Source: Jimgerdemannia flammicorona
Lineage: Eukaryota
DNA: 50,675 bases
Assembly (NCBI GenBank): GCA_003990765.1
Contig: RBNJ01000027.1
Coordinates: 1-50,675 of the forward strand
Direction of reading: 5' to 3'
Within the stretch, counting starts at the first letter, position 1; every line of letters begins with the position of its first letter. Under the pieces are notes generated by a model, which was not told the DNA's origin, ran no database searches, and saw nothing but the letters and a program-made list of their open reading frames with translations. Below, piece after piece: positions 576 through 45,605 of this stretch. The position numbers were made by a program, and so were the translations under genes.

Positions 576-3098
576 GGTGAAAGTCGATAGAGTTGAGCCA
601 CTTGGCTACAGAGGCTTGGGCTTCATGAGGGACTAAGGCTAGAAAGACTGCTGCTGGTTGTCCTAGGTTGCTTGGATTTGTGGAGCTGACAAAACTCTTG
701 TTGAGAAGAGTAAAGAAGGCTTCTATAAGACCTTCTTCATCTTGACTTGCTGGGTGTAGAGCAAGGAGTTCGGTGAATAGGGTTTCACCTATTTGCTGAT
801 TTATCTGGAGTATTTCTTTCTTCGAATGAAGTTTGTCCCACTTGTTGCAGGTGTGGAGGTCAAATTGTCCTTGTATATCAGGTTCAATTCTCTCTAGATT
901 GTCAGATAGTTTAGGGTAAATTCCAGTTCAGAGGTTGGGCTTTATACCAACTTATAGGAATTTATAGAGAGATTTTGTAGCTGAGTGAGAAAGCATCTTG
1001 AAGTGGAATTGGATTGTAAACCACTACTACCAAGTTGTAAGAGGGTTGCTTTTTAGGGTAACTATTATATAGTTCTGAAAGAGTTTTCTAAAAGTTCTGA
1101 ATATTCTGAAAGACTGTTTTCTTATGGTCAAGATTAATTTTGTATAGAGTACATCCTCTATGCTTATTGATTTCAAGATCAGGTTGATGTCTCAACCAAA
1201 GTCCTTTTTCCAGACTAGTTCTAAATATTCAGGATTTTCTGTATTTCAGGAAGTTCAAAAAACTAAGACCAGCTTAGTTGAATTGATGTATCACTGCAGA
1301 CAATACCCAATTAGGAAATTTAATGATAGGGTTAGGAGTGGGACTTAACAGGAAGCAGATTTACTTAAGAGTAGTTTGTGGGTTATTAAATAGGTTTATT
1401 CACTATTTATGATATTGCTATACTAAGAGTAGTTGTGTAAAGGGATATTGTGGGGAAGTATTCAGAAATGTTCTTGTGTGTTCGAGTCTGAGATTCTGAG
1501 GTCTGGGGAAGGGGGTATTTATACTAGTGAGGGGCTATCTGGACTATGCTAAATATGGATGTAGTACTAAGTACCTTGCTGAGTCAGAATACAGTCATAT
1601 AGTACAAGTGTGATCTGACATATCAAGAGATCATCTGACTGCTGAGTCAGTTCACAGTTACATGGTACAAGGCTAATCTAACTATACTATGACTGCTAAA
1701 CTATTTATAGGTTTAGGCACTATCTAGGTAGTCTTCGATGATATCACTATCAATGATATCATCTCTAATGAAGTAGTCATCTAGGAAGAGTGGTTTGCAG
1801 ATTACTTCTCCTTGTTGACTGAGGTAGTAATATATTGGGACTTCATCTCTGTTCCATAGAATTACATCATCTGTCTTATATGCTGGATAGAGTGTTGGTG
1901 GGCAAAGGAGGGGTGCATCATCTTTGCTTTCATTGAATTTACTGTCTGTATATCTTCAGTAGGTTATAGCACTATGAGTTGCAGGATTGTAGTAAGCTGG
2001 TGGCTGTGGTTCATGTTGCTCATACTCAGGTGGTAGAGTAGTTGGTTCAATCTCAAGAGTTGTCTGGAGGTACAAGTTGTGTTCTCTGGTCTCTTCATTA
2101 TAGTTGAAGTAATTGGGGGTAAATACTGGTTGGTATTCATACTAGTGGTCATTGTTCTAATAGGTCTCATAGGTGGTTATGAACTATTGTAAGTTTATTA
2201 GCAGAGTTGGTGGTGTGATCAGAGTTGGTAGAGATCCTTGGCTTGAGGTCATGTCAGTGTCAGAGGGATCATTGTCTTCTGCTTTGTCTTTGTCAAAATG
2301 GATTATATTGTAGATATCCTTCATAGTATATCCAACTTGAGGTATTTGCAGAATATGGTCATCAGGGTGTAGGAAGGTTCTGTCTGTAGTTTCAATGTAC
2401 TCAAGGTACTTGTGGTTGAGTTTTTGTATCATGTCGTTGATTTGGCCATAGAATAGAGTAGCAACCATTTTGCTGGTAGTAACTCGTAGGTAGGGAATAA
2501 AGGTACTGTACTCATAAAAGAGTTCTCAGTATTTGCAGGTGATGAGTTTCTGGTGTTGAGACATCTGGATAATGTCTATATCATAGTGGTGTTTGACTAT
2601 GTCTTCCAGGAGATGGTCAATTTGATAGTAGCTTGAGATTTGTCCAATTCAGTGGGCCTCATTAAGCATGTTCAGGGTGTTCCATCGAGCTTTCATGAAG
2701 TAGAGGGGTGCTAGGCTATGGATATTTATGAGAGGCAGAGGGGGTATAGCTCAGTTGACAATGGTATTCCAAATGTCAGCATGGATGCAGTTGTAGATCT
2801 CAGTAGTCATGTTTGTGTATTTGGAAGTTGTAGTTATTGTTTGTTTTGATTTTCTGTTTCAATACATCTCAGTACTCAGTATATATGCATTTGGTCCTGA
2901 TTGGTAAGATTCTGTTTATGTAAATCTTATGTTCTGTGACTTTGTGTTGACTCAACTTTGTACACTATGACTTCAGTTTGACTTAGCTTTGTAATTGAGT
3001 AGGTGATTTCTAGATTTGTTCAGAGGTCGCATGTGATTTCAGTGGTTTGTTCAGAGGGTGATGTGTGATTTCAGTGGCTTGGAGGTTGTGCACTTATA
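576..3098 (-). mobile_element. Family-1 Ty3/Gypsy element I: 5' LTR (1036-3098), PBS (~1021-1032) and part of the leader; interrupted at 575
   Basis: LTR ends tgtaagaggg at 1036 and cacttata at 3098 (mutated TG). PBS on - strand reads tggtagtagtgg. Inserted in gag of element H (flank ggctt 3099-3103). Confidence 0.9.
1713..2810 (-). pseudogene. U3-encoded LTR ORF (~365 codons, unknown function), copy in element I
   Basis: 1098 nt from ATG to TAA, same span as other copies. ORF 2184..2468 (MVATLFYGQINDMIQ...) is a fragment. Internal stops present. Confidence 0.75.
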
Positions 3099-6000
3099 GG
3101 CTTTGAAGTTAGTATCAACTATACTAATGAAGCTTTGGGCTTCTTGTGCAGTACCATTGAAGATAGGTAGGCTCAGATTTTTGGTGGGTCAGGTCTGTTC
3201 GGCTAAGGCAGTAATAATTGCTGTCATTATAACTACCTGGGCTGTAAGGTCTAGAATCTGTTAGTTTGCCATGTTGTTTACTAGAGGCAGTTAGACTGCT
3301 AGTAGTAGTATTACTGGTACTACTTGAGATACTAGTGCAGAGTGTGATGGGGTTCTTTGAGTCTGTATAAGTTGCTGGAGTAGTAGTTGTGGGTCTGGAG
3401 TAAGGGCTCAATAGATAGCTGTTTGTTGCTATATAGGTGTGTTCTGGCCTGATGGAGGTGCATCTTCTTTGGTAGTATATTCTGGATCGAATTCACTAAG
3501 ATACTCCTCCTCCTCTTCAGTTTGATCCCTATGTAATTGGGTTTGTTTGGCATCAAAGTAAACAGAATCAGTTGTATATCTGATTTCAGATGGACTTAAT
3601 TCAAAGCCAAGTTCTGGTTCAGTATTGGTTTTGAGTTCAGATAGAGCTGTAGCAGGGACTACTTTGGATTCAGAGTCAGGTAGTTGGTGAAGAGTTTCTC
3701 TTGCTTCTTTCTTAAGAATATGGTGGGCCTTACTGTTCTGGAATTGGTAGTATAGTGCAGTCTTGGTCCTGGTATGGTGAAAGTCTATAGAGTTGAGCTA
3801 CTTGGCTACAGAGGCTTGGGCTTTATGAGGAACCAAGGCTAGAAAGACTGCTGCTGGTTGTCCTAGGTTGCTCAGATTTATGGAGCTGACAAAACTCTTA
3901 TTGAGAAGAGTAAAGAAGGCTTCAATAAGACCTTCTTCATCTTGACTTACTGGGTATAGGGCAAGGAGTTTGATGAATAGAGTTTTGCCTATTTGCTGAT
4001 TTAACTGGAGTACTTCTTTCTTTAAATGAAGTTTGTCCCACTTGTTGTAAGTGTGGAGGTCAAATTGTCCTTATATATTAGGTTCAATTCTCTCCAGATT
4101 GTCAGATGGTTCAGGATAAATTCCAGTTCAGAGGTTGGGCTTTATACCAACTTGTAGGAATTTGCAGAAGGGTTTGTAGTGGGGTAAGGAAGTATCTTGA
4201 AGTAGAATTAAATTGTAAACTGCTGCTACCAAGTTATAAGAAGGTTGCTTTTTAGAGTAACCATTACATAGTTCTGGAAGGGTTTTCTGGAAGTTCTGGA
4301 TATTCTAGAAGACTGTTTTCTTAAGGTCAACATCAATTTTATATAGAGTATATCCTCTATGCTTATTGATTTCAAGATCAGATTGACATCTCAACCAAAG
4401 TCCTTTTCTGGACTAGTTCTGGATGTTCAGAATTTTCTGTATTTTAGGAAGTTTAAGAAACTAAGGCCAGCTTAGTTGAATTGGCATATCACTGCAGACA
4501 ATACCCAATTAGGAAATTTCATGACAGGATTAGGAGTAGGACCTAACAGGGAGTGGATTTACTTAAGAGTAGTTTGTGGGTTATTAAATAGGTTTATTTG
4601 CTATTCATGATATTACTATACTAGGAGTAGTTGTATGAAGGAATATTGGGGAGAAGTATTCAGGATTGTTCTTATGTGTTCAAGTCTATTTGAGTCTGAG
4701 ATTCTGAGGTTTGGGGGAGAGAGTATTTATACTAGTAAGGGGCTATCTGGACTATGCTGAATATGGATGTAGCACTTAGTGCCTTGCTGAGTCAGAATGC
4801 AGTCACATAGTATAAGTGTAATCTGATATATCAAGAGATTATCTAACTGCTGAGTTAGTTCACAGTCATGTCATATAAGGCTAATCTAACCATACTATAA
4901 CTACTAAGCTATTTATAGGTTTAGACACTGTCTGGGTAGTCTTCAATGACATCACCATTGATTGCATCATCTCTGATGAAGTAATTATCTAGGAAGAATA
5001 GTTCGCAGATTACTTCTCCTTGTTCACTGAGGTAATAATACATTGGAACTTTGTCACTATCCCACAGGATTGCATCATCTGTCTCATATGCTGGATAAGG
5101 TGTTGGTGGGCAAAGGAGTAGTGCATCATCTTTACTTTCATTAGATTCACTATCTGTATATCTTCTATAGGTTACAACACTATGAGTCATAGAGTTGTAG
5201 TAAGCTGGTAGCTGTGGTTCATATTGCTCATACTCAGGTGGTAGAGTTGTTGGTTCGATCTCAAGGGTTGTCTGAAGATACAGGTTGTGTTCTCCAGTCT
5301 CTTCATTGTAGTTGAAGTAATCAAGGGTGAATGTGGGTTGATATTCATGCCAGTAGTCATTGTTCCAATAGGTCTTATAGGTAGTTATGAACTATTACAA
5401 GTACATTGGCAAGGTTGGCAGTATGATCAGAGTTGGTAAGAATCCTTGGCTGGAGGTCATATCAGTGTCAGAGGGATCATTATCTTCTACTTCATCTTCA
5501 TTGAACTAGATTATATTATAGATATCCTTCATGGCATATCCAATTTGAGACATTTGCAGGATGTGGTCATCAGGGTGCAGGAAGGTTCTATCTGTAGTCT
5601 GGAAGTACTCGAGATACTTGTGGTTGAGTTCTTGTATCATGTCATCGATTTGGCCATAGGACAGAGTAGCAACCATTTCACTGATAGTAACTCGGAGGTA
5701 GGGAATGAAGGTGCTGTACTCATAGAAGAGTTCTCAATGTTTGCAGATGATAAGCTTCTGGTGTTGAGACATCTGGGTAATGTCCATGTCATGGTGGTAT
5801 TCGATCATATCTTCCAGGAGGTGGCTGATCTAGTAGTAGCTTGAGATTTGTCCAATTCAGTGGACCTCACTAAGCATGTTCAGGGCATTCTATCAGACTT
5901 CCATGAAGTAGAGGGGTGCTAGGCTATGGATATTCATGAGGGGCAGAGGGGGTGTAGCTTGGTTGACAATGGCATTCCAAATGTCAGCATGGATACAGTT

Positions 6001-6308
6001 GTAGATCTCAGTGGTCATATTTATATATATTTAGAAGTTGTAGTTATTATTTGTTTTGGTTCTCTGTTTCGATGTGTCTTGGTGCTCAGTATATATATAT
6101 TTGGTCCTAATTGGTAAGATTCTGTTTGTGTGAATCTTGTGTTCCATGACTTCATGTTGACTTAGCTTTGTATACTATGACTTCAGTTTGACTCAGCTTT
6201 ATGATTATGCAGATGATTTCCAGATTTGTTCAGAGGTTGTGTATGATTTTGGTGGCTTGTTCAGAGGGTAACATGTGATTTCTGTGGCTTAGAGGTTGTG
6301 CACTTACA
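3099..6308 (-). mobile_element. Family-1 element H: 5' LTR (4235-6308), PBS (~4220-4231), leader and gag start (ATG 3272); interrupted by element I
   Basis: LTR ends tataagaagg (4235, mutated) and cacttaca (6308). PBS tggtagcagcag. Inserted into the divergent integrase fragment (flank ttgta 6309-6313). Confidence 0.9.
4921..6018 (-). pseudogene. U3-encoded LTR ORF, copy in element H
   Basis: 1098-nt span. ORF 4921..5190 (...DDAINGDVIEDYPDSV) is the C-terminal fragment. Confidence 0.75.
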
Positions 6309-7975: not shown

Positions 7976-9073
7976 ATGACCACCAAGATCTACAACCATA
8001 TTCATACTGACATTTGGAATACCATTATCAACCGAGCCATACCCCCTCTGCCCCTCATGAATATCCATAGCCTAGCACCCCTCTACTTTGTGAAAGCCTG
8101 ATGGAATGCTCTGAATATACTTAGTGAGGCCCACCGAATCAGACAAATCTCAAGCTACTACCAGATCGGCTGCCTCTTGGAAGATATGGTTGAACATCAT
8201 CATGACACAGACATTATCCAGATGTCTCAACACCAGAAGCTCATCGCCCGCAAATACTGAGAACTCTTCTACAAGTATAGCACTGTTATTTCCTGCCTCT
8301 GAGTTACTACAGCTGAAATGGTTGCTACCCTGTCCTATGGCCAAATCGATGACATGATATAAGAACTCAACCACAAGTACCTTGAGTACATCAAAACCAC
8401 AGACAGAACCTTCCTATACCCCAATAATCATATCCTGCAAATGCTCCAAGTTGGATATGCCATGAAGGACATCTACGATATAATCCACTTTGATGAAGAT
8501 GAAGCAGAAGACAATGATCTCTCTGACACTGACATGACCTCTAACCAAGGATCTCTGCCAACCCTGATCATACCGCCAATCTTGCTGATGAACTTACAAT
8601 AATTTATAATAGCATACAAGACTTATTGGGATAATAATCATTAGTATGAATACCAACCTGCATTCATCCCCGATTACTTCAACTACAATGAAGAGACCGG
8701 AGAACACAACCTGTACCTCCAGACAACCCTTGAGATTGAATCAACCACTCTACCACCTGAGTATGAGCAATATGAACCACAGCCACCAGCTTACTATAAC
8801 CCTGCGACTCATAGTGCTGTAACCTACAGAAGGTATGCAGACAGCAAATCTGATAAAAGTGAAGATGATGTACTCCTCCTTCGCCCACCAATACCTTATC
8901 CAGCATATGAGACTGATGATGCCATTTTGTGGGATAGAGATGAAGTTCCAATGTATTATTACCTCAGCAAACAAGAAGAAGTAATCCATGAACCACTCTT
9001 CCTAGATGACTACTTTATCAGAGATAATGCAATCGATGGTGATGTCATTGAGGACTACCCAGACAGTACTTAA
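7976..9073 (+). pseudogene. U3-encoded LTR ORF, copy in element F
   Basis: acaaacATGacc at 7976 to TAA at 9073 = 1098 nt; internal stops. Confidence 0.75.
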
Positions 9074-19117: not shown

Positions 19118-19901
19118 TGTAATAACTCTCACTTCTACCTCTCTCTTATCCTTTGGATAATTAGGGAAGTGGACTATTACTTAGGGACTTAGTACACAAT
19201 GTATACCAAGAAGCCTTCAGTTTGAGGAAGTACCCACTTGTAAGTAGTTGTAGTGGTAGTATCTTCTGTTTCAAAGATCTTTCTCTGGTGGTCTATTTTG
19301 AGAGTCTTGTTCTTTGCTGTGCACAGACTGAATTCATCTTAGAATTCAGATTCAATGGGTTTACTTAAGTCTTTGGGGATTTATATACTGGTCTCAGTTC
19401 TGGCAGAAGTTAGCTAGACTTCTGAAGTTTAGTCAGAAACACTAGAGTCACTTAGGTGTCATTACTAAGACTCAGGGGAATGTGTGTGTAGGGGGGACTT
19501 GATTCTTATATCAAGGACTGAACTAAAACTGCTTTATTTTGAATGGAAACTGAGGGGTATTTATATAAGTTGGTCTGCGATTTCTGACTAAGTATGAGTG
19601 ACTAATTTGGTAACTATAATGAGGTTTGTGATCATGACCTTTGTCAGGTAGTTTTTGGCAAAAAACAACTTTGTGATTAGGACCTCAATTACTAGACAAT
19701 GATTAGCTGCTGTAGCAACAGTTGCTGCAGTACTGATTATTGGGGATAAGCTGGATATCATTTTTTGCATCATTTCACATTATTCATCATTCATAATTTA
19801 TATATTGTACTTCACTCATATGATGATGTCATCGCTGCCAGGTCACATGATCACTCATCTCATTGGTCCCATCTGATCACTTGCTTATTCATTCTATTAC
19901 A
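19118..19901 (-). repeat. Family-2 5' LTR (784 bp) with TATAAATACCCC box at ~19554-19565
   Basis: 7-bp terminal inverted repeat and adjacent PBS. The TATA context is identical to family 1. Only one copy in the window. Confidence 0.8.
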
Positions 19902-21614
19902 CCCTCTGCCCCTCATGAATATCCATAGCCTAGCACCCCTCTACTTCATGAAAGCCTGATAGAATGCCCTGAACATGCTTAGCAAGACCTATCAAATCAG
20001 ATAAATCTCAAGCTACTATCAGATCAGCCACCTCCTGGAAGACATGGTTGAACACCACTATGATACAGATATTACCCAAATGTCCCAACACCAGAAACTC
20101 ATTGCCTACAAATATCAATGAGTATAGTACTATTATTTCCTACCTCTGAGTTACTACCACTGAAATGGTTGCTACTCTATCCTATGGCCAAATCGATGAC
20201 ATGATACAAGAACTCAACCACAAGGACTTTGAGTATATTGAGACCACAGACAGAACCTTCTCACACCCTAATGACCATATCCTGTAAATGTCTCAAGTTG
20301 GATATGCCATAAAGGATGTCTATGATATAATTCAGTTCAATAAAGATGAAGCAGAAGACAATAATCCCTCTGACACTGATATGACCTCAAGCCAAGGATC
20401 TCTACCAACCCTGATTACACTACCAATCTTGTCAATGAAGTTACAACAGTTCATAACTACCTACAAGACCTACTGGAACAATGATCACTAGTATAAATAC
20501 CAACCTACATTTATTCCTGATTACTTCAACTACAATGAAGAGACTGAAGAACACAACCTATACCTCCAGACAACTCTTGAGATTGAATCAATCACTTCAC
20601 CACCTGAGTATGAATAACACAAACTACAGCCACCAGCTTACTACAACCCTGCGACTCATAGTGCTATAATCTATAGAAGATATGCAGATAGTGAATCTGA
20701 TGAAAGCAAGAATGATGTATCCCTCCTTCACCCACCAATATCTTATCTAGTATACAAGACAGATAATGCTATCCTATGGGACAGTAACAAAGTTCCAATG
20801 TATTACTACCTCAGCGAATAAGGAGAAGTAATCCACGAACCACTCTTCCTAGATGACTACTTTATCAGAGATGATGCCATCAATGGTGATATTATTGAAG
20901 ACTACCCAGATAGCATCTAAACCTATAAATAGCCTAATAGTAATAGTATAGTTAGATTAGTCTTATACAATGTAACTGTAAACTGACTCAGCAGTCAGAT
21001 GATCTCTTGATATGTCAGATCACTCTTGTACTATGTGACTACATTCCGACTCAGCAAGGCACTTAGTGCTATATCTATATTCAACATAGCCCAGATAGCC
21101 CCTCACTAGTATAAATACCCCCTCTCCTAGACCTCAGAATCTCAGATCTAAACAATCCAAACACAACTCCTGAGCACTTCCCCACAATATTTCTTTACAT
21201 AACTACTCCTAGTATAGCAATATCATGAATAGTAAATAAACCTATTTAATAACCCACAAACTACTCTTAAGTAAATCCACTCTCCATTAGATCTCACTCC
21301 TAACCCTATCACAAAATTTCCTAATTGAGTATTGTCTGCAGCAATATACTAATTCAACTAAGCTGGTCTTAGTTTCTTGAACTTCCTAAAATACAGAAAA
21401 TCCTGAACATCCAGAACTAGTCTGAAAAGGGACTTTGGTTGAGATATCAATCCAATCTTAAAATCAATAAGTATAGAGAATGTACTCCATATGAAATTGA
21501 TCTTGACCATAAGAAAACAGTCTTCCAGAACATCCAGAACTTTCAGAAAACTCTTCCAGAACTATGTAATGGTTACTCTAAAAAGCAACCCTCTTATAAC
21601 TTGGTAGCAGCAGG
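19902..21614 (+). mobile_element. Family-1 element C, left piece: 5' LTR lacking its first ~0.33 kb (ends 21598) plus PBS
   Basis: LTR homology from ccctctgcccctcatg to ctcttata (21598), then act-tggtagcagcagg. Continues at 42666 after element B. Confidence 0.88.
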
Positions 21615-22281: not shown

Positions 22282-23379
22282 TTAGGCACTGTCTGGGTAG
22301 TCCTCAATAACATCACTATTGATTGCATCATCTCTAATAAAGTAGTTGTCCAGGAAAAGTGGTTCACAGATTACTTCTCCTTGTTTACTGAGGTAATAAT
22401 ATATTGGAACTTCATCTCTGTCCCACAAGATAGCATCATCTGTCTCATATGCTGGATAAGGTATTGGTGGGTGAAGGAGGGGTACATTGTCTTCACTTTC
22501 ATTGGTTTCACTATCTGCATACCTTCTATAGATTATGGCACTATGAGTTATGGGGTTATAGTAGGCTAGTGGCTGTGGTTCATGTTGCTTGTACTCGGGT
22601 AGTGGAGTGGTTGGTTCAATCTCAAGGGTTGTTTGGAGGTACAGGTTATATTCTCTGGTCTCTTCATTGTAGTTGAAGTAATTGGGAGTGAATGTGAGTT
22701 GGTATTCGTGCTAGTGGTCATTGTCCCAATAAGTCTCATAGGCTGTTATGAATTGTTGTAAGTTCATTAGTAAGGTTGGTGGTGTGATTAGGGTTGGCAG
22801 AGATCCTTGGCTAGAGGTCATGTTAGCATCAGAGGGATTATTGTCTTCTGCTTCATCTTCATCAAAGTGGATTATATTGTAGATATCCTTCATGGTGTAT
22901 CCAACTTGGAGTATTTGCAGGATATGATCATTGGGGTGTGGGAAGGTTCTGTCTGTGGTTTCGACATACTCAAGGTACTTGTGGTTGAGTTCTTATATCA
23001 TATCATCGATTTGACCATAGGACAGGGTAGCAACCATTTCGGCTATAGTAACTCAGAGGCAGGGAATAATGGTACTGTACTCATAGAAGAGTTCTTGATG
23101 TTTGCAGGCAATGAGCTTCTGGTGTTGGGACATCTGGGTAATATCTGTATCATGGTGGTATTCGATCATGTCTTTTAGGAGGCAGCCAATCTGATAGTAG
23201 CTTGAGATTTGTCCAATTCGGTGGACCTCGCTAAGCATGTTTAGAGCATTCTATTGGGCTTCCACAAAGTAGAGGGGTGCTAGGCTATAGATATTCATAA
23301 GGGGCAGAGAGGGTGTGGCTCTATTGACAATGGCATTCCAAATGTCAGCACGGATATAGGTATAGATCTCGGTGGTCAT
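22282..23379 (-). pseudogene. U3-encoded LTR ORF, copy in B 3' LTR
   Basis: 1098-nt span; fragments 23053..23238 and 22711..22893. Confidence 0.75.
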
Positions 23380-30306: not shown

Positions 30307-31400
30307 ATAACCACTGAGATCTACAACTACATCCGTGCTGACATTTGGAATGCCATCATCAACCGAGCTACACCCCCTCTGCCCCTCATGAATATCCACA
30401 GCCTAGCACCCCTCTACTTCATGGAAGCCCGATGGAATGCTCTGAACATGCTTAGTGAGGCCCACTGAATTGGACAAATCTCAAGCTACTACCAGATCGG
30501 CCGCCTCCTGGAAGACATGGTCGAACACCATCACGATATGGACATTACCCAGATGTCTCAACACCAGAAGCTCATCACCTGCAAACATCGAGAACTCTTC
30601 TATGAGTACAGCACCTTTATTCCCCACCTCTGAATCACTACCAGCGAAATGGTTACTACCCTGTCCTATGGCCAAATCGATGACATGATACAAGAACTCA
30701 ACTACAAGTACCTCGAATATGTCCAGACCACAGACAGAACCTTCCCACACCCTGATGACCATATCCTGCAAATGCCTCAAGTCGGATACGCCATGAAGGA
30801 TGTCTACGATATAATCCACTTCAACGAAGATGAAGCAGAAGACAATGATCCCTCTGATGCCAACATGACCTCAAGCCAAAGATCTCTGCCAACCCTGATC
30901 ACACCACCAACCTTGCCAATAAACTTACAACAGTTTATAACCGCATACGAGACTTATTGGGATAACGACTACTAGCATGAATACCAACCTGCATTCACCC
31001 CTGATTACTTCAACTATAATGAAGAGACCGGAGAACACAACCTATACCTCCAGACAACCCTTGAGATTGAACCAACCACTCCACCACCTGAGTACGAGCA
31101 ATATGAACCACAGCTGCCAGCTTACTACAATCCTGCAACTCATAGTACTATAATCTATAGAAGGTATGCAGTGAATCTGATGAAAGTGAAGACAATACAC
31201 CCATCCTTCGCCCACCAACACCTTATCCAGCCTACAAGACAGACAATGCTATCCTGTGGGATGGAGATGAAGTCCCAATATATTACTATCTCAGCGAACA
31301 AGGAGAAGTAATCCATGAATTACTCTTCCTAGATGACTACTTTATCAGAGATGATGTCATTGATGGTGATGTCATCGAAGACTCCCCAGACAGCGCCTAA
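30307..31400 (+). pseudogene. U3-encoded LTR ORF, copy in A 5' LTR
   Basis: Start mutated to ATA; 4-bp deletion near 31170; fragments 30250..30468 and 30649..30975. Confidence 0.72.
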
Positions 31401-31589
31401 ACCTATAAATAGCCTAGCAGTCATAGTATAGTTAGATTAGCTTTGTATGACATAACTGTGAACTGACTCAGCAGTCAGACAATCTCTTGACATGTCAGAT
31501 CACACTTGTACTATGTGACTGCATTCCGACTCAGCAAGGCACTTAGTGCTACATCCATATTCAGCATAGTCCAGATAGCCCCTCACTAG

Positions 31590-31597
31590 TATAAATA
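31590..31597 (+). promoter_or_regulatory. Main LTR TATA box (TATAAATA), putative U3/R promoter
   Basis: ctagTATAAATAcccc is conserved in all family-1 LTRs, with AATAAA ~120 bp downstream (31713) and TGACTCA upstream (31464). Confidence 0.7.
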
Positions 31598-32079: not shown

Positions 32080-32089
32080 TGGTAGCAGC
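32080..32089 (+). promoter_or_regulatory. Primer-binding site TGGTAGCAGC, initiator-tRNA-Met-like
   Basis: 3 nt after the LTR end; complementary to a ...GCUGCUACCA tRNA 3' end. The tRNA identity is inferred. Confidence 0.75.
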
Positions 32090-33041
32090 AGTTTACAATC
32101 CAATTCTGCTTCAAGACGCTTCCTCACCCTGCTACAAACCCTTCTGCAAATTCCTACAAGTTGGTATAAAGCCCAACCTCTGAACTGGAATTTATCTGAA
32201 CCATCTGACAATCTGGAGAGAATTGAACCTGACATACAAGGACAATTTGACCTCCACACCTGCAACAAGTGGGACAAACTTCATTCCAAGAAAGAAATAC
32301 TCCAGTTAAATCAGCAAATAGGTGAAACCCTATTCACCGAACTCCTTGCACTACACCCAGCAAGTCAAGATGAAGAAGATCTTATTGAAGTCTTCCTTAC
32401 TCTTCTCAATAAGAGTTTTGTCTGCTCCATAAATCCGAGCAATCTAGGACAACCAGCAGCAGTCTTTCTAGCCTTAGTTTCTCACAAAGCCCAAGCCTCT
32501 GTAGCCAAGTGGCTCAACTCTACCGACTTTCACTGCACCAGGACCAAGACCACCTTATACTACCGATTCCAGAACAGCAAGATCTGCTATATCCTTAAAG
32601 AAGAAGCAAGAGAAACCCTTCATCAACTACCTGACCCTAAACCTGAAGCAGGCTCTGCTACAGCCCTACCTGAATCTGAAACCAATACCAAACCTGAACT
32701 TGACTTTGAATTAAGTCCATCTGAAATCAGATATATAACTGATTCTATCTACTTTGACGCTGAGAAAACCCAATTACACGAGGACCAAACCGAAGAAGAG
32801 GAGGAGTATCTCACTGAATTTGATCCTGGATATACCACTGAAGGAGACACACATCCATCAGGACAGAATACACCTATACAGCAACAAACAGCTATCTATC
32901 AAGCCCTCACTCCAGATCCACAACTATGTACTACTCCAGCAACTTACACAGACCCAAAGAACCCCATCACACTTTGCACCAGTACCTCAAGTAGTACCAG
33001 TAACACCACTACCAGCAGTCCAACCACCTCCAGCAATCAAC

Positions 33042-36000: not shown

Positions 36001-38168
36001 TGGACCCCAGCAAAATCTCTGCAATCAAGGATTGGCCCAGACCCAAGAAGCTGAAAGACCTCCAGTCATTTCTGGGACTAGCAAACTATTATAGGTGATT
36101 TGTTGCCAACTTTGCTAAAATCGCTACTGCCCTCACCCAAATGACCAAGCATAGCAAGAAACAAGAACAACCTTGGACCATGAAACAAGAGAATGACTTC
36201 AACAATCTTGTAAATTAGGGACCCAAACAAGATACCGCCTTCCAAGCACTGAAAGATACTCTGATAACCACACCAGTACTTCAAGCGGCAAACCCTGCCC
36301 TACTATATAAAGTCACCACTGATACCTCTGACCTAGCTCTTGGAGCAGTGCTCATGCAAGAAGGACACCCAGTGGCCTATCACTCCCACAAGTTCAATGA
36401 TGCCAAAATCAACTATGCAACTCACGAGAAGGAAATGCTAGCCATCGTAGACACTCTGATCAAATGGCAACCATATCTAGAAGGAGCATACTTCACTATA
36501 TTGACTGACCACAAGTCATTAGTCAACATCAAGACACAGGCTACTCTTTCCCGAAAGCAAGCCAGATGGATGAAAGTTCTCACCAACTTTGACTATGAAA
36601 TTCAGTACCACCCTAGCAAGGAAAATATTGTTGCCAATGCAATCTTCAGACCACCAATCAAAGAGATTATCCAAACTCTGACCTTGGTTACCAACACTAT
36701 CATAGAACAAATCATCACAGCATGTATTGATGATAAAGAAGCTCAAGCACTCTGAGAAATCCTGAACAATAATGATGCTGACAAGTATACCCAGTACAAT
36801 CAATACTAACTCAAGGACAATGCTATCTACTATAAGGACAGACTGTATGTTCCAAACAACCGAGACCTCCGAAGGACTATCCTATTCAAATATCATGATG
36901 CCCCTATAGCTGGACATTTAGGATTCGATAAATATTATGAAGTTATCTCCCGAAACTTCTATTAGTCCTGCATGGCAGATCAGCTCAAAACCTACATCAC
37001 TTCCTGTGATGCCTGCCAATGAAACAAGTCCTCAACACTAGCAAAACCTGGCTTACTCCACCCTATTCTAGTACCATCTGCAAATTGGGAACAAATCTCT
37101 ATGGACTTCATTGTACAACTACTCCGAACCAAGAATGGAAAAGATGCAATTGTTGTCTTTATGGACTATCTCAGCAAACAAGCCCACTTTGTGCCTACTA
37201 CCACTACTGCAACAGCACCAGACATAGCCACACTCTTATTTGACAACATCTTCCACCATCATGGTCTTCCTAAGATCATTATTAGTGACCGAGATCCGAA
37301 GTTCACCAGCCATTTTTGGAAAGCCCTCCATGCACACCTTGGAACGAAACTTGTACTATCCACAGTCTTTCACCCTGAAACTGATGGCCAAACCGAAAGA
37401 ATGAACCGAACTCTGGAACAAATGCTAAGGAACTATGTCTCCTACAGATAAGATGATTGGCATGAACATCTCACCGCAGTCGAGTTTGCCTATAACAACA
37501 GCAAGCAAGCCTCTCTTGGAATGATCCCATTCTTCACTAATACTGGACAAAACCCAAACACCTCTTTGACACTTATCCGAACTACCGATGAACCCTCCAC
37601 AGTCGAAGCTGTTGAAGAATTCCTACTTCGAATGCGCAATCTAAGCCAGATTGCAATTGAGAATTTATCACGAGCCCAAGAACAACAGTTACAGTATGTT
37701 AACCAATACTGCCGAGAAGAAACTTTTGATATTGGAGAAAAAGTCCTACTAGACATCAGAGGATACCAAGTTGACAACCTCAAGCACAGACCATCCACAA
37801 AGCTGAACAGTAAGTTCATTGGACCATTTGAAGTCATTGCACAAGTCTCTCCAACCTCCTACAAACTGGTGCTACCAGACACTATTAAGATTCACCCAGT
37901 TTTTAATGTTCAACGTCTCAAGTGATACAATGACAATGATGACAAGCTATTTCCAAATCGGACCACCAAACCACCTGCACCTGTCATTATTAATGACCAA
38001 GAAGAGTATGAAGTTGAACAAATCCTCAACAAACATGGCAACAATAACCATTCTGAGTATCTTGTCAAATGGAAAGGTTACCTGATCTATGATGTAACCT
38101 GGGAACCCAAGACCAATCTCCAGAATGCTACCGATCTAGTTCAGAAATATGATTCCTTGAATAACTAG
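33042..38168 (+). pseudogene. gag-dUTPase-PR-RT-RH-INT-chromodomain polyprotein of element A
   Basis: Knuckle CFYCQKTGHMASAC 33983-34024; dUTPase ~34105-34510; DSGA 34779; YIDD 35826; RNase H ~36310-36650; integrase ~36890-37560; GPF motif; chromodomain ~38000-38160. Stops and two small deletions. Confidence 0.94.
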
Positions 38169-38579
38169 AACCAAATACTCTGTACCTATCCATACATACT
38201 ATATATTACCCTCCTGAACATTATAACTATTACGAACCAAGTCAAGAACTCACCAAAACAAGACAAGAATACCGAATCCCTGGGAAAATAGCAAAACTGA
38301 AAGCAAGCCTATTCTCCCTGTACCACTGGTGGGAAACAAGATGTAGACATTTAAGAAGATTCCTTAGAGGAAATTCTCCAGCAGTAAATGACGTCAGAAT
38401 CACTTCCGGTGCATGGTATTGAACATACAACTCTTTAACATGTGAATCCAATGCGTTAGGCAACTGTACTACGAGCATGCCACTTTCTGAGAAAATGGAC
38501 CTTACCAGACTTTTGACCTCCCAAATGGTATAACAACACTAGAACAAATTAGAAGGCCCCGATGAGGATGTCGAAAGCT

Positions 38580-38592
38580 AAGAAGGGGAGAG
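38580..38592 (+). promoter_or_regulatory. Polypurine tract AAGAAGGGGAGAG
   Basis: Immediately before the 3' LTR; same tract on the - strand in B (~23669) and D (~45013). Confidence 0.9.
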
Positions 38593-38593
38593 T

Positions 38594-40652
38594 TGTAAGC
38601 ACACAACCTCCAAGCCACCGAAATTACACATGACCTCTGAACAAATCTGGAAATCACCTGCTTGATCACGAAGCTGAGTCAAACCAAAGTCACAGCACAT
38701 AAAGCTGAGTCAAACCGAAGTCACAGCGCACAAAGCTAAGTCAATACAAAGTCACGGAACACAAGATTTACACAAACAGAATCTTACCAATCAGGACCAA
38801 ATACATATATACTGAGCACCGAGACGCGTTGAATCAGAGAACCAAAACAAACAACAACCACAACTTCCAAACACACAAATATGACCACTGAGATCTATAA
38901 CTGCATCTGTGCTGACATTTGAAATGCCATCATCAACTGAGCTACACCCCCTCTGCCCCTCATGAATATCCACAGCCTAGCACCCCTCTACTTCGTGGAA
39001 GCCTGATGGAATGCTCTGAACATGCTTAGTGAGGCCCACCAAATCAGACAAATCTCAAGCTACTACCAGATTAACCGCCTCCTGGAAGACATGGTCGAAC
39101 ACCATCATGATACAGACATTACCCAGATGTCTCAATACCAGAAGCTCATCGCCTGCAAACATCGAGAACTCTTCTATGAGTATAGTACCTTTATTCCCCG
39201 CCTCCGAGTCACTACCAGCAAAATGGTTGCTACCCTATCCTATGGCCAAATCGATGACATGATACAAGAACTTAACTACAAGTACCTCAAATATGTCCAG
39301 ACCACAGACAGAACCTTCCCACACCTGATGACCATATCCTGCAAATGCCTCAAGTCGGATACACCATGAAGAATGTCTATGATATAATCCACTTCGATGA
39401 AGATGAAGCAGAAGACAATGATCCCTCCAATACTGATATGACCTCAAGCCAAGGATCTCTGCCAACTCTGATCACACTGCCAACCTTGCCGATGAACTTA
39501 CAACAGTTCATAACCACATACGAGACTTATTGGGATAACGACCACTAGCATGAATACCAACCTGTATTCACCCCCAATTACTTCAACTACAATGAAGAGA
39601 CTGGAGAACACAACCTGTACCTCCAGACAACCCTCGAGATTGAACCAACCACTCCACCACCTGAGTACGAGTGACATGAACCACAGCCACCAGTTTACTA
39701 CAATCCTGCAACTCATAGTGCTATAACTTATAGAAGGTATGCAGACAGTAAATCCGATGAAAGCAAAGACAATACACCCATCCTTCACCCACCAATACCT
39801 TATCCAGCCTACGAGACAGACAATGCTATTTTGTGGGATGGAGATGAAGTCCCAATGTATTACTACCTCAGCGAACAAGGAGAAGTAATCTGTGAACCAC
39901 TCTTCCTAGATGACTACTTTATCAGAGATGATGTCATTGATGGTGATGTCATCAAAGACTACCCAGACAGTGCCTAAACCCATAAATAGCCTAGCAGTCA
40001 TAGTATAGTTAGATTAGCTTTGTACGACATGACTGTGAACTGACTCAGCAGTCAGACAATCTCTTGATATATCAGATCACACTTGTACTACGTGACTGCA
40101 TTCCAACTCAGCAAGGCACTTAGTGCTACATCCATATTCAGCATAGTCTAGATAGCCCCTCACTAGTATAAATACCCCCTCCCCCAGACCTCAGAATCTC
40201 AGACTCAAACACACAAGAACATTCCTGAATACTTCCCCACAATATCCCTTCACATAACTACTCCTAGTATAGCAATATCATGAATAGCAAATAAACCTAT
40301 TCCATAACCCACAAACCACTCTTAAGTAAATCTGCTCTCTGTTAGGTCCTATTCCTAACTCCATTACAAAATTTCCTAATTGGGTATTGTCTGCAGTGAT
40401 ACGCCAATTCAACTAAGCTGGTCTTAGTTTCTTAAACTTCCTGAAATACGGAAAATTCTGAACATCCAGAATCAGTCCAAAAAAGGACTTTGGTTGAGAC
40501 ATCAACCTGATCTTAAAATCAATAAGCATAGAGGACGTACTCCATATGAAATTGATCTTGACCATAAGAAAACGGTCTTCCAGAACATCTAGAATATCTA
40601 GAAAACCTTTCCAGAACTATGTAACAGTCACCCTAAAAGTAACCCTCTTACA
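38594..40652 (+). repeat. 3' LTR of element A (2059 bp)
   Basis: Follows the PPT; ends ctcttaca followed by the TSD. Confidence 0.96.
38881..39977 (+). pseudogene. U3-encoded LTR ORF, copy in A 3' LTR
   Basis: ATG 38881 to TAA 39977 = 1097 nt (1-bp deletion near 39325); fragments 39022..39369 and 39345..39548. Confidence 0.72.
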
Positions 40653-41279
40653 TGGAAAGGTTTTCTGGATATTCTGGAAGACTGTTTTCTTATGGTCAAG
40701 ATCAATTTTGTATGGAGTACGTCCTCTATACTTATTGATTTCAAGATCAGGTTGATATCTCAACCAAAGTCCTTTTTTGGGACTAGTTCTGGATGTTCAG
40801 AATTTCTATATTTCAGGAAGTTCAAGAAACTAAGACTAGCTTAGTTGAATCAGTGTATTGCTGCAAACAATACTCAATTAGAAAATTTTGTGATGGGGTT
40901 AGGAGTAGGACCTAACAGGGAGTAGATTTACTTAAGGGTGGTTTGTGGGTTATTTGAATGGGTTTATTCACTATTCATGATATTACTATACTAGGAGTAG
41001 TTGTGTGAAGGGATATTGTAGGGAAGTATTCAGGAATATTCTTGTATGTTCAAGTCTGAGATTCTGAGGTCTGGGGGAGGGGGTATTTATACTAGTGAGA
41101 GGCTATCTGGACTATGCTGAATATAGATATAGTACTAAGTGCTTTGCTGAGTTGGAATGTAGTCACGTAGTATAAGTGTGATCTGACATATCAAGAGATC
41201 ATCTGACTGCCGAGTCAGTTTACAGTCATGTCATACAAGACTACTCTAACTATACTATGACTGCTAGGCTATTTGTGGT

Positions 41280-42377
41280 TTAGGTACTGTCTGGGTAGTC
41301 CTCAATGATATCACCATCGATTGTATCATCTCTGATGAAGTAGTCATCTAGGAAAAGTGGTTTGCGAATTACTTCTCCTTGTTTGCTAAGGTAATAATAC
41401 ATTGGAACTTTATCTCTGTCCCACAAGATGGCATCATCTGTCTCATATGCTGGATAAGATATTGGTGGTCGAAGGAGGAGTGCATCATCTTTACTTTCAT
41501 TGGTTTCACTATCTGCATACCTTCTATAGGTTACGGCACTATGAGTCATGGGGTTGTAGTAGGCTGGTGGCTGTGGTTCATGTTGCTTGTACTCGGGTAG
41601 TGGAGTGGTTGGTTCAATCTCAAGGGTTGTTTGGAGGTACAGATTGTGTTCTCCAGTCTCTTCATTATAGTTGAAGTAATCGGGGGTGAATGTGGGTTGG
41701 TATTCATACCAGTGGTCATTGTCTCAATAAGTCTCGTAGGCTGTTATGAATTATTGTAAGTTCATTGGCAAGGTTGGTGGTGTGATCAGGGTTGGCAGAG
41801 ATCCTTGGCTAGAGGTCATGTCAGCATCAGAGAGATCATTGTCTTCTGCTTCATCTTCATCGAAGTGGATTATATTGTAGATGTCCTTCATGACATATCC
41901 AACTTGGGGCATTTGTAGGATATGATCATTGGGGTGTGGGAAGGTTCTGTCTGTAGTTTCAATATACTTGAGATACTTGTGGTTGAGTTCTTGTATCATA
42001 TCATCAATTTGGCCATAGGACAGGGTAGCAATCATTTTGGCTGTAGTAACTTGGAGGCAGAGAATAATGGTACTGTACTCATAGAAGAGTTCTCGATGTT
42101 TGTAGGTGATGAGCTTCTGGTGTTGGGACATCTGAGTAATGTCTGTATTGTGGTAGTGTTCGATCATATCTTCCAGGAGGCGGCCGATCTGGTAGTAGCT
42201 TGAGATTTGTCCGATTTGGTGGGCCTCGCTAAGCATGTTCAGAACATTCCATCGGGCTTCCACGAAGTAGAGGGGTACTAGGCTATGGATATTCATGAGG
42301 GGCAGAGGGGGTGTGGCTCTATTGACAATGGCATTCCTAATGTCAGCGCAGATATGGGTATAGATCTCGGTGGTCAT
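41280..42377 (-). pseudogene. U3-encoded LTR ORF, copy in B 5' LTR
   Basis: 1098-nt span; ORFs 41751..42482 (243 aa) and 41280..41549 are in the same frame. Confidence 0.8.
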
Positions 42378-42665
42378 GTTTGTATATTTGGAAGTTATGG
42401 TTGTTGTTTGTTTTGGTTCTCTGATTCGATATGTCTCAGTGCTTGGTATATATGTATTTGATCTTGATTGGTAAGATTCCATTTATGTAAATCTTGTGTT
42501 CTGTGACTTCATATTGACTCAGCTTTGTATGCTGTGACTTTGGTTTAACTCAGCTTCATGATCAAGCAGGTGATTTCTAGATTTGTTCAGAGGTTGTATG
42601 TGATTTTAGTGGCTTGTTCAGAGGATGATGTGTAATTTCTGTGGCTTGGAGATTGTGTGCTTACA

Positions 42666-42975
42666 GTAGGTTACAATCTAATTTTGCTTCAAGATGCTTC
42701 CTCACCCCACTGCAAACCCCTCTGAGAATTCCTACAAGTTGGTATAAAGCCCAACCTCTGAACTGGAATTTATCCTGAACCATCTGACAATCTGGAGAGA
42801 ATTGAACCTGATGTACAAGGATAATTTGACCTCCACACCTGCAACAAGTGGAACAAACTTCATTCAAAGAAAGAAATACTCCAGTTAAATCAACAAATAG
42901 GCAAAACCCTATTCACTGAACTCCTTGCTCTATATCCAGCAAGTTAAGATGAAGAAGGTCTTATAAAAGTCTTCT
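42666..42975 (+). mobile_element. Family-1 element C, continuation of the leader; interrupted by element D
   Basis: gtagg-ttacaatc... resumes the sequence broken at 21614. Confidence 0.88.
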
Positions 42976-43653
42976 TGTAAGAGGGTTACTTTTTAGGGTG
43001 ACCGTTACATAGTTCTGGAAGGGTTTTCTGGATATTCTGGATGTTCTGAAAGACCGTTTTCTTATAGTCAAGATCAATTTCATATGGAGTATGTCCTCTA
43101 TGCTTATTGATTTCAAGATTGGGTTGACGTCTCAACCAAAGTCCTTTTTCGGACTAGTTCTGGATGTTCAGGATTTTCTGTATTTCAGGAAGTTCAAGAA
43201 ACTAAGACCAGCTTAGTTGAATTGGCGTATCGCTGCAGACAATACCCAATTAGGAAATTTCGTGACGGGGTTAGGAGTAGGACCTAACAGAGAGCAGATT
43301 TACTTAAGAGTGGTTTGTGGGTTATGGAATAGGTTTATTTGCTATTCATGATATTGCTATACTAGGAGTATTTGTGTGAAGGGATATTATGGAGAAGTGC
43401 TCAGGAGTTGTGTTCAGATTGTTCAAGTCTGAGATTCTGAGGTCTGGGGGAGGGGGTATTTATACTAGTGAGGGGCTAACTGGACTATGCTAAATATGGA
43501 TGTAGTACTAAGTGCCTTGCTGAGTCGGAATGCAGTCACATAGTACAAGTGTGATCTGACATGTCAAGAGATCGTCTGACTGCTGAGTCAGTTCACAGTC
43601 ACGTCGTACAAGACTAATCTAACTATACTATGACTGCTAGACTATTTATAGGT

Positions 43654-44751
43654 TTAGGTACTATCTGGGTAGTCCTCGATGACATCACCATCGATTGCAT
43701 CATCTCTGATGAAGTAGTTGTCTAGGAATAATAGTTCGCGGATTACTTCTCCTTGTTGGCTGAGGTAGTAATACATTGGGACTTCATCTTCATCCCACAG
43801 GATAACATCGTCTGTTTTGTATGCTGGGTAAGGTGTTGGTGGGCGAAGGATAGGTGTACTGTCTTCACTTTCATCGGATTCGCTGTCTGCGTACCTTCTA
43901 TAGGTTATAGCACTATGAGTTGTGGGGTTATAGTATGCTGGCAGCTGTGGTTCATATCGCTCATACTCGGGTGGTGGAGTGGTTGGTTCGATCTCGAGGG
44001 TTGTCTGAAGGTACAGGTTGTGTTCTCTGGTCTCTTCATTGTAATTGAAGTAATCGGGGGTGAACACGGGTTGATATTCGTGCCAGTGGTCATTGTCCCA
44101 ATAAGTCTCATATGTAGTTATGAACTGTTGTAAGTTCATTGGCAAGGTTGGTGGTGTGATCAGGGTTGGCAGAGATTCTTGGCTAGAGGTCATATCGGTG
44201 TCAGAGGGATCATTGTCTTCTGCTTCATCTTCGTTGAAGTGGATTATATCATAGATGTCCTTCATGGCATATCTGACTTGAGGCAATTGTAGGATATGGT
44301 CATCAGGGTGTGGGAAGATTCTATCTGTGGTTTCGACATACTCGAGATACTTGTGGTTGAGTTCTTGTATCATGTCATCGATTTGGCCATAGGACAGGGT
44401 AGCAACCATTTTGCTGGTAGTGACTTAGAGGCAGGGAATAAAGGTGTTGTACTCATAGAAGAGTTCTCGATGTTTGCGGGCGATGAGCTTCTGGTGTTGA
44501 GACATCTGGATAATGTCTGTATCATGGTGGTGTTCAATCATGTCTTCTAAGAGGCAGCCGATCTGGTAGTAGCTTGATATTTGTCCTATTCGGTGGACCT
44601 CGCTAAGCATGTTCAGGGCATTCCATCGGGCTTCCACAAAGTAGAGGGGTGCCAGGCTATGGATATTCATGAGGGGCAGAGGGGGTGTTGCTCGGTTGAC
44701 AATGGCATTCCAAATGTCAGCACGGATGCGGTTGTAGATCTCAGTGGTCAT
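43654..44751 (-). pseudogene. U3-encoded LTR ORF, best-preserved copy (365 codons, one internal TAA)
   Basis: ORFs 44425..44943 and 43654..44409 are in frame. They are separated by one TAA that is CGA or CAA in other copies. Confidence 0.85.
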
Positions 44752-45436
44752 GTTTGTGTGTTTGGAAGTTGTAGTTGTTATTTGTTTTGGTTCTCTGATT
44801 CGACGCGTCTCGGTGCTCAGTATATGTATATGTATTTGGTCCTGATTGGTAAGGTTCCGTTTGTGTAGATCTTGTGTTCCGTGACTTCGTATTGACTCAG
44901 CTTTGTGCACTGTGACTTCAGTTTGACTCAGCTTCATGATCAAGCAGGTGATTTCCAGATTTGTTCGGAGGTCGCGTGTAATTTCAGTGGCTTGGAGGTT
45001 GTGTGCTTACAACTCTCCCCTTCTTAGCTTTCGACGTCCTCGTCGGGGCCTTCTAATTTGTTCTAGTGTTGTTATACCATTTGGGAGGTCAAAAGTCAGG
45101 TAAGGTCTATTTTTTCAGAAAGTGGCATGCTTGTAGTACAGTTGCCTAACGCATTGGATTCACACGTTAAAGGGTCATGTGTTCAATGCCATATGCCGGA
45201 AGTGATTCTGACGTCATTCACTGCTGGAGAATTTCCTCTAAGGAATCTTCTTAAATGTCTACACCTTGTTTCCCACCAGTGGTATGGGAAGAATAGGCTT
45301 GCTTTCAGTTTTGCTATTTTTCCAGAGGGTCGGTATTCTTGTCTTGTTTTGCTGAGTTCCTGACTTGGTTCATGATAGTTATAATGTTCAGGAGGATAAT
45401 ATATAGTATGTACAGATCAGTGCAGAGTATTTGGTT

Positions 45437-45605
45437 CTAGTTGTTCAAGGAATCATATTCCTGAACTAGGTTGGTAGCATTCTGAAGATTGGTCTTGGGT
45501 TCCCAGGTTGCATCGTAGATCGGGTAACCTTTCCATTTGACAAGGTACTCAGGATGGTTCTTGTTTCCACATTTGTTGAGGATTTGTTCAACTTTGTACT
45601 CTTCT
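45437..45605 (-). other. Integrase C-terminal chromodomain (chromovirus hallmark)
   Basis: [40 protein letters not shown] retains the Y/W/Y aromatic-cage positions of canonical chromodomains. Confidence 0.92.

Follow-up and report, generated by a model that had tools for sequence, protein, structure and literature searches.

A reading frame inside the LTRs of a chromovirus

Can a long terminal repeat (LTR) of a Ty3/Gypsy retrotransposon hold a protein gene of its own? The question is raised by a 1098-nt open reading frame (ORF) from the genome of Jimgerdemannia flammicorona, on contig RBNJ01000027.1 of GenBank assembly GCA_003990765.1, of which we analyzed positions 1 to 50,675 of the forward strand (hereafter the window). 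Nested in the window are decayed copies of a single Ty3/Gypsy chromovirus family with LTRs of ~2.04-2.06 kb, and an earlier note on this DNA proposed that a conserved gene for a protein of ~365 residues sits in every one of these LTRs. In the LTR designated D, the frame runs on the minus strand from 44751 to 43654 and translates as MTTEIY...DYPDST-stop, with a single internal TAA at codon 109. We consider it probable that this frame is what is left of a real accessory gene, borne in the U3 region of the LTRs of active ancestors and pseudogenised here; this judgement concerns the existence of the gene and leaves its function aside.

A BLASTN search with the frame of D finds nine copies in the window including D itself, the other eight being 81-89% identical to D; eight copies are full length and one is 5'-truncated (Table 1). 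Every LTR copy that extends across the region, nine in all, has the ORF; a further LTR fragment (7187-7727), the tenth, is truncated and lacks it. No LTR in the window could be clearly recognised as solo, and the retention in solo LTRs that the earlier note had proposed was not observed. It occupies LTR positions 261-1358 of ~2036 in the sense orientation. The earlier note had described it as a sense frame that fills over half of the LTR upstream of a sequence box, and this is correct: it takes up 1098 of the 2036 nt of LTR D, with the TATA box downstream. Elements B, which is complete, and F each carry it in their two LTRs, which makes it a component of the LTR rather than of the internal region. 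The length is exactly 1098 nt in six of the nine copies, as had been stated. Small private deletions had been noted in two others, and these are found (4 nt in L6 and 1 nt in L7), together with a further copy, L4, that is 5'-truncated and has a deletion of 11 nt. The ATG is retained in seven of the eight copies that reach the start, and the terminal TAA in all nine. The description of a conserved gene in every LTR therefore holds for the presence of the frame and understates its decay, since all nine copies are pseudogenes with between one (D) and eight (L2 and L4) in-register internal stops.

The frame carries a coding signature

The frame is longer and cleaner than chance would provide. When LTR D is shuffled 1000 times with dinucleotides preserved, no 365-codon window with one stop or fewer arises (mean 12.1, minimum 4), and the longest open run of 256 codons compares with a shuffle average of 100 and a maximum of 193. 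Across the six copies of exactly 1098 nt, the ORF frame holds 1-8 internal stops and the other five frames hold 6-45, the lowest of these being the antisense frame in the same register (6-13). The correlation of codon frequencies with those of the family's pol has r=0.68 for frame 0; for the remaining two sense frames r is 0.17 and 0.16. The off-frames of the ORF resemble the off-frames of pol, and base composition by codon position nearly equals that of pol.

Insertions and deletions point the same way. The earlier note had remarked on indels in the flanking LTR DNA and had asked whether their frequency in the ORF differs from that in the rest of the LTR; it does, with no shared indel in the 1098 ORF columns against eight positions, each common to at least two LTRs, in 1016 flanking LTR columns, where an even spread would predict ~8.6 in the ORF. 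All three deletions that do fall in the ORF are private to single copies and break the frame. In the contigs of four public sequencing runs, no indel with a share of at least 20% lies inside the ORF among the variants listed, and those found just outside it are at 44823, 43418 and 45309-45438.

Selection before insertion and decay after it

When the paired LTRs of elements B and F are used to date the differences, the action of selection becomes apparent. The two LTRs of an element are identical at insertion, so that differences within an element are post-insertion and neutral, while sites at which both B LTRs agree, both F LTRs agree and B differs from F were fixed before insertion. Among pre-insertion differences, 42 are synonymous and 25 non-synonymous, distributed 20:5:42 over the three codon positions; the post-insertion differences comprise 77 synonymous and 116 non-synonymous changes, distributed 72:38:83. 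The synonymous ratios differ (Fisher p=0.0017), and both control frames show the opposite sign. With mutational opportunity taken into account, synonymous changes make up 36 of the 55 fixed transitions, compared with an expectation of 19.8 (p=1.4e-5), from which an omega of roughly 0.3-0.4 is derived; the private transitions are consistent with neutrality (77 of 190 synonymous, 65.2 expected, p=0.08).

Hypermutable sites that are hit twice could pass for fixed ones, and the contrast was therefore also computed with such sites masked. It persists when CpG sites are removed (30:16 vs 46:65, odds ratio (OR) 2.6, p=0.008), which is the form in which the earlier note had wished to see purifying selection demonstrated, and when both CpG and CpA are removed (17:6 vs 13:22, OR 4.8, p=0.008). 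Both parts of the frame go in the same direction (codons 1-114, OR 3.1, p=0.054; codons 115-365, OR 2.3, p=0.019), and most of the 17 clean non-synonymous changes among the fixed ones are conservative (I/V, D/N, E/K, S/A). We conclude that moderate purifying selection acted on the ORF during the active period of the family and that neutral C>T decay has followed since.

The decay has a clear mutational signature. Transitions, mostly C>T/G>A, make up 91-95% of the differences from the column majority, and the C>T rate depends on context in the order CpG (0.33), CpA (0.18), CpC (0.10) and CpT (0.04), with a CpG observed/expected ratio in the window of 0.23. The cause of this repeat hypermutation is methylation-linked deamination or a process like repeat-induced point mutation. 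At 17 of the 19 codon positions that bear a stop in some copy, other copies read CGA, CAA, CAG or TGG, each one transition short of a stop. The LTR tree is star-like, with terminal branches of 0.03-0.15 and inner branches of 0.014-0.032. The two LTRs within one element are already ~7-9% different.

Relatives in public sequence collections

Searches of 5.8 billion clustered proteins, with a HMMER profile search of 1.84 billion representatives, return only two relatives of the ORF protein. The first, P0001 (247 aa, from a 998-nt ENA contig), is 65% identical to residues 115-365 and ends at the same last position; relative to the ORF it has two in-frame gaps of two residues each, and it reads W at the position of codon 223. 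The second, P0002 (128 aa, from a 1180-nt JGI contig), begins at the same start Met, reads R at codon 109 and continues through Met115, although proteins in such collections are open frames by construction. In run contigs, the first base of codon 109 is the sense base at 131 of 193 depth in run X1 and at all depth in runs X2, X3 and X7.

Beyond these two fragments, the claim that the protein is undescribed stands. Pfam has no family for the ORF protein, P0001 or P0002 at E up to 0.01 or up to 10, a sequence profile search of the PDB with the ORF protein returns only noise (E=0.48), and the ESM Atlas gives no usable match to the unbroken 251-aa part. Searches for the DNA of the relatives in JGI metagenome, IMG/VR viral and GTDB genome contigs gave pattern matches, none of which was confirmed. 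When the Atlas is queried with the RNase H ORF of the carrier, it returns only generic eukaryote (plant, oomycete) retroelement clusters.

The family itself is found in environmental samples. P0003 (537 aa, from a 3633-nt contig of a JGI metagenome) is an uninterrupted dUTPase-protease-reverse transcriptase protein, 95% identical to the protease ORF of the window; environmental samples therefore contain copies of the family that are less decayed and may still be active. The runs that contain k-mers of the family come from soil and wood-decay metagenomes and, in addition, one coded organism, and in one run, from a soil metagenome, the family is highly abundant (3844 contigs).

The predicted protein

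The conceptual product has 365 residues and an isoelectric point (pI) of 4.37. Its N-terminal ~140 residues are near-neutral and predicted to be helical, and the remaining ~225 are rich in D/E, P and Y/W/F; in the C-terminal 251 residues, D+E amount to 21.6%, P to 9.6% and Y+W+F to 13.6%, with a pI of 4.05. Conservation relative to P0001 is concentrated in the aromatic-rich blocks. The maximum Kyte-Doolittle hydrophobicity in a 19-residue window is 0.94 and no segment could span a membrane, in line with the view of the earlier note that the protein has no transmembrane segment and is not env-like. A PPxY late-domain motif was considered and rejected, since neither P0001 nor element F conserves the PPEY of D. 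The ORF protein has no similarity to the open frame in the gag leader of the same elements (see below). Judged by these properties, the product is predicted to be a soluble, acidic orphan protein without a described relative.

Acidic stretches with aromatic or hydrophobic residues are typical of activation regions. If a role is to be named, the most likely one would be that of a regulatory or adaptor protein of the element, for example a transactivator with an acidic-aromatic activation region; we regard this as doubtful, the guess at a regulator having the acidic, aromatic-rich composition as its sole basis. Roles as an adaptor, a chaperone or an anti-silencing factor may be proposed as alternatives and are equally conjectural.

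Probable placement in U3 and proposed expression

The motifs around the ORF suggest where it lies in the transcription unit. Conservation within the LTR is highest in the block CACTAGTATAAATACCCCCTCCCCCAGACCTCAGAATCTCAGAC; its TATA box, the fully conserved GTATAAATAC, lies 190 nt past the ORF stop. A TGACTCA site stands ~120 nt upstream of the conserved TATA box and an AATAAA signal ~120 nt downstream of it. With TATA and AATAAA both downstream of the ORF, the LTR has the usual U3-R-U5 layout, which places the ORF probably in U3. An additional TATA-like element directly behind the ORF is lost in both F LTRs (Table 1) and is therefore dispensable.

Upstream of the ORF, the first block of the LTR contains two kinds of ~31-nt tandem repeat, one of which carries TGAGTCA and is present in 2-3 copies, and an ATATA-rich stretch follows ~70-90 nt before the ORF ATG; in the least-decayed copies no other ATG intervenes upstream. 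We take TGAGTCA to be a basic leucine zipper (bZIP) site of the AP-1/Gcn4 type. The window contains 25 TGASTCA sites against 15.7 expected, a number that none of 100 shuffles reaches, and most are at these LTR positions. The repeat copy number varies among element lineages (1-2 and 2-3 copies; LTR alignment columns 51-175), a variation that fits enhancer-like repeats evolving by slippage. LTR D has a private 4-nt insertion in this block, in the 44823 region.

From this layout a mode of expression can be proposed. Reverse transcription would have duplicated the ORF at every transposition, the ORF being within the LTR. The genomic RNA would hold it once, at the 3' end after pol, so that an mRNA of its own would be needed. 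A second promoter in the first 260 nt of the LTR would drive the ORF, whose ATG would be the first downstream AUG, and the mRNA would end at the LTR's own poly(A) signal, making each LTR a self-contained gene cassette. We put forward tentatively that each LTR was such a cassette, with its own promoter, the 365-aa ORF and poly(A) signal, from which an orphan acidic regulator (one that transactivates the LTR or counteracts silencing) could have been made by both LTRs and by any surviving solo LTR, in an arrangement convergent with that of mouse mammary tumour virus (MMTV).

Alternative explanations

Several observations weigh against a gene that served the element. No intact copy of the ORF exists within the window. 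The earlier note had regarded fixed stops in the consensus as telling against a gene, and on a naive count two are there. Codon 109 is a stop in five of the nine copies, CGA in three and CAA in one; the single TAA of D had been reported correctly, but its codon is not simply sense elsewhere, being a stop in four of the other eight copies. Codon 223 is TAG in six of the nine, both LTRs of element B among them, so that some mobilised copies may already have been broken and the protein would not have been needed in cis. Set against this, both codons are of hypermutable types (CGA and TGG), and the relatives read R (P0002) and W (P0001) at these positions. The scatter of TAG223 over the LTR tree and the disagreement between L5 and L8, both of element F, require recurrent hits at codon 223 under any history. 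The clean selection test compares one pair of elements, B and F, and a looser test over all elements (variants in at least two elements vs singletons) gives 86:84 vs 80:101 (OR 1.29, p=0.24). The ratio of fixed to private differences is 0.35 in the ORF against 0.29 upstream and 0.21 downstream, and the ORF overall is no slower than its flanks because its third positions are fast and its second positions slow. P0001 starts at Met115, so that a stop may lie upstream on its contig. As to expression, the excess of TGASTCA is modest and the sites are copies of one another, and sequence motifs are the source of the putative transcription start, the putative poly(A) site and the proposed second promoter. 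As to function, AlphaFold2 models from three-row alignments have a mean predicted local distance difference test (pLDDT) score of 32.4 for the full protein and 40.0 for the N-terminal 208 residues, and thus no confident fold.

Several of these points would suit a passenger, that is, coding DNA from a host gene or from the ORF of another element that was captured into U3, did the retrotransposon no service and survives as a fading relic: all nine copies are broken, TAG223 is found in both B LTRs among the six, the protein is an orphan without recognisable function, and the region evolves overall no slower than its flanks. We consider such a capture unlikely, because the differences between B and F that predate insertion are biased towards synonymous changes and those that postdate it are not, which argues for selection on a protein already in the LTR. 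The absence of lineage indels from the ORF against eight in the flanks, a codon usage equal to that of pol, and a relative of 65% identity that retains both frame and stop are likewise difficult to reconcile with a relic, and no host-gene relative is found among the 1.84 billion representative proteins.

The remaining alternatives concern the layout of the LTR and the nature of the frame. Transcription might start in the 5' repeat block, in which case the ORF would lie in a long R region or 5' leader as the first cistron, of the ORF0/ORF1 type seen in Retrosat2 or Ogre. The promoter-like TGAGTCA repeats and the ATATA-rich stretch upstream of the ATG, and the position of that ATG as the first AUG, are compatible with such a start, and orphan upstream ORFs are known in long-LTR Gypsy elements, ORF0 of Retrosat2 being described in the available part of PMC3485330. 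The best-conserved block of the LTR is, however, a canonical TATA downstream of the ORF with TGACTCA and AATAAA ~120 nt to either side, and strand transfer would need an R region of ~1.4 kb, which makes this layout very unlikely; we know of no precedent for an R region of that size. That the open frame is a by-product of skewed base composition or of constraint on the other strand, in a U3 that codes for nothing, is barely credible. The sense strand is indeed T-poor at codon position 1 and A/C-rich overall, and in the six copies of 1098 nt the same-register antisense frame has rather few stops (6-13). Yet none of the 1000 dinucleotide shuffles comes close, the 20:5:42 pattern of substitutions is that of the sense frame and the reverse of what antisense coding would predict, the control frames are opposite in sign, and codon usage matches pol in register. 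We therefore retain the reading of an LTR-borne accessory gene that was selected while the family was active and has since been pseudogenised.

Comparison with known systems

In the literature searched, which was without most subscription journals, figures and supplements, so that an earlier description is possible, protein ORFs borne within LTRs were found for MMTV only and for no LTR retrotransposon. The supplement of one paper (PMC2864245, Additional file 1) gives the structures of fungal elements bearing an 'add. ORF', among which an earlier LTR-borne ORF might be shown. MMTV has the sag/naf ORF in U3, a second U3 promoter, P2, that drives this ORF, and an encoded dUTPase, according to the accessible text of PMC9412291. 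The likeness lies in a complete protein ORF within the LTR, duplicated with it (in U3 for MMTV and probably so in our case), in a second U3 promoter upstream of the ORF (reported in MMTV and proposed here from motifs), and in the presence of a dUTPase in both elements. MMTV differs in being an enveloped betaretrovirus of mice, whereas the element studied here is a chromovirus without env. Sag is a type II membrane glycoprotein; the ORF protein has no hydrophobic segment, and no sequence match to it beyond the two fragments appears in Pfam, the PDB or the protein collections. In layout, the closest counterpart of the ORF is the LTR ORF of MMTV, to whose family it does not belong.

LTR retrotransposons are known to carry additional ORFs (aORFs), which, in the part of the review available (PMC7264820), lie in the internal region, where they are sense and env-like, antisense (Grande, RIRE2, Retand and brtn of Boty) or upstream of gag; the orphan ORF0 of Retrosat2 precedes gag-pol (PMC3485330). 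The ORF described here shares with them that it is family-wide, that aORFs are usually orphans of obscure function, and that no host-gene relative is known (PMC7264820, PMC3485330, as far as these texts extend). It differs in position: aORFs are internal, between pol and the 3' LTR or 5' of gag, and the present ORF is wholly within the LTR and thus occurs twice per element. From env-like aORFs it is set apart by the lack of a transmembrane segment in its protein and by not lying between pol and the 3' LTR, and from brtn, compared by description only, by being sense and inside the LTR, brtn being antisense and between pol and the 3' LTR.

Tas (Bel1) of foamy viruses is an accessory transactivator with an acidic activation region whose gene reaches into U3 and has a separate promoter, forming a two-promoter feedback circuit. 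Its likeness to the ORF is a working analogy only; there is no homology, and tas lies mostly outside the LTR. Likewise, with acidic transactivators of the Tas, Tax or VP16 kind the likeness is confined to the composition of the C-terminal 251 residues. LTRs that carry RNA genes are reported for Cassandra (a 5S-like sequence), Helenus and Ajax in the available portion of PMC10886601. In these, too, the LTR itself carries a gene with its own promoter; they are small-RNA genes of Pol III in non-autonomous elements, in contrast to a protein ORF of 1.1 kb in an autonomous element.

The carrier element and its surroundings

The LTRs have the termini TGTAAG...CTTACA; the primer-binding site (PBS) TGGTAGCAGCAG follows the 5' LTR, and the polypurine tract (PPT) AAGAAGGGGAGAG precedes the 3' LTR. 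On the minus strand just above the ORF of D, Pfam recognises gag-asp_proteas/RVP_2, RVT_1, RT_RNaseH, SH3_Tf2-1 and Chromo, in an element that extends beyond the window. Element B (30020-40652, plus strand) is complete, with a 5-bp target-site duplication (TSD), TGGAA, and LTRs that are 93% identical; in it, a CCHC gag and a dUTPase precede the protease. The CCHC motif was recognised in translation, and the integrase core in translation only. The carrier is a Ty3/Gypsy chromovirus and agrees with that group in all features tested (termini, PBS, PPT, TSD, domain order and chromodomain).

Table 1. Positions in the window of the ORF copies, the LTRs that carry them and the associated motifs
Feature	Position	Strand	Remarks
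ORF copy D, 365 codons	43654..44751	-	terminal TAA 43654-43656; internal TAA 44425-44427 (codon 109)
ORF copy in L6, 5' LTR of B	30307..31400	+	ATA for ATG; 3 in-register stops; 4-nt deletion
ORF copy in L7, 3' LTR of B	38881..39977	+	5 in-register stops; 1-nt deletion
ORF copy in L8, 5' LTR of F	41280..42377	-	2 internal stops; codons 1-208 open
ORF copy in L5, 3' LTR of F	22282..23379	-	4 internal stops
ORF copy in L3 (7718-9750)	7976..9073	+	6 internal stops
ORF copy in L2 (4234-6259)	4921..6018	-	8 internal stops
ORF copy in L1 (1035-3049)	1713..2810	-	7 internal stops
ORF copy in L4 (19899-21599), 5'-truncated	19899..20920	+	8 stops; 11-nt deletion
LTR D (L9), 3' LTR of a chromovirus with pol at higher coordinates	42976..45011	-	TGTAAG...CTTACA ends
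L6, 5' LTR of element B	30020-32076	+	
L7, 3' LTR of element B	38594-40652	+	
L5, 3' LTR of element F	21615-23667	-	
L8, 5' LTR of element F	40653-42665	-	
Polypurine tract AAGAAGGGGAGAG	45013..45025	-	just before 3' LTR D
First 260 nt of LTR D	44752..45011	-	tandem ~31-nt repeats with TGAGTCA (44924-44930, 44893-44899) and ATATA-rich stretch; promoter-like
First TATAAATA	43643..43650	-	begins 3 nt past ORF end; ACAAATA instead in both F LTRs
TATA box TATAAATA of block CACTAGTATAAATACCCCCTCCCCC	43457..43464	-	same in 9/9 LTRs save point decay in C-run; putative genomic-RNA promoter
AATAAA poly(A) signal	43334..43339	-	9/9 LTRs; putative mark of R/U5; ~120 nt downstream of TATA box

The elements are nested in one another. 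The insertion point of B lies in F's 5' LTR, ~45 nt away from the inner end (junctions 30019/30020 and 40652/40653), and this insertion within F is why the LTRs of F, L5 and L8, lie 17 kb apart. Between L8 and LTR D there is a 311-nt piece of the leader region without an LTR (42664-42974, plus strand), the remnant of a further element destroyed by nesting. No LTR of the second retroelement family in the window, or other direct repeat, was found in 10200-21000, and Rfam and tRNA scans of the window gave no match.

In both retroelement families of the window a dUTPase (Pfam PF00692) stands between the gag CCHC knuckle and the protease, at 34055-34699 (plus strand, E=1.9e-21) in element B and at 16716-17369 (minus strand, E=2.2e-15) in the second family. 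A dUTPase at the Pol N-terminus has been reported, in the section of PMC2864245 available, for Gypsy elements of wood-decay basidiomycetes and one ascomycete. Taken together with the marked depletion of CpG and with the soil and wood-decay metagenomes in which k-mers of the family occur, this would point to a fungal host, perhaps a basidiomycete.

Downstream of the PBS, the leader contains an ATG-less open frame of ~290 codons, for which Pfam gives no match and alongside which the other frames have 21-36 stops; it is found at ~32200-33100 (plus strand) in B, at 28734-30011 (minus strand) in F, and at 9713-10989 (plus strand) and 3088-4271 (minus strand). In F and two other copies it continues into gag (MVNQQILDL...) in the same frame, in B a private 4-nt insertion shifts it, and an upstream ORF of 17 codons lies 5' of it. 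The leader frame may represent an extension of Gag at the N-terminus whose start is non-AUG or spliced. Candidate splice sites in the leader and at the LTR start were considered too weak and dropped.

Implications

As far as our literature search reaches, a protein gene internal to an LTR has so far been described only for retroviruses (MMTV). For genome annotation, the case is a warning that repeat masking hides genes borne in LTRs. If the gene is real and was expressed, it would represent one new orphan protein family, and the LTRs of this chromovirus would carry a protein cargo that every insertion doubles and that solo LTRs could preserve after the element itself is lost. The family would then also be a tractable case for studying accessory functions needed in hosts that methylate or hypermutate their repeats.

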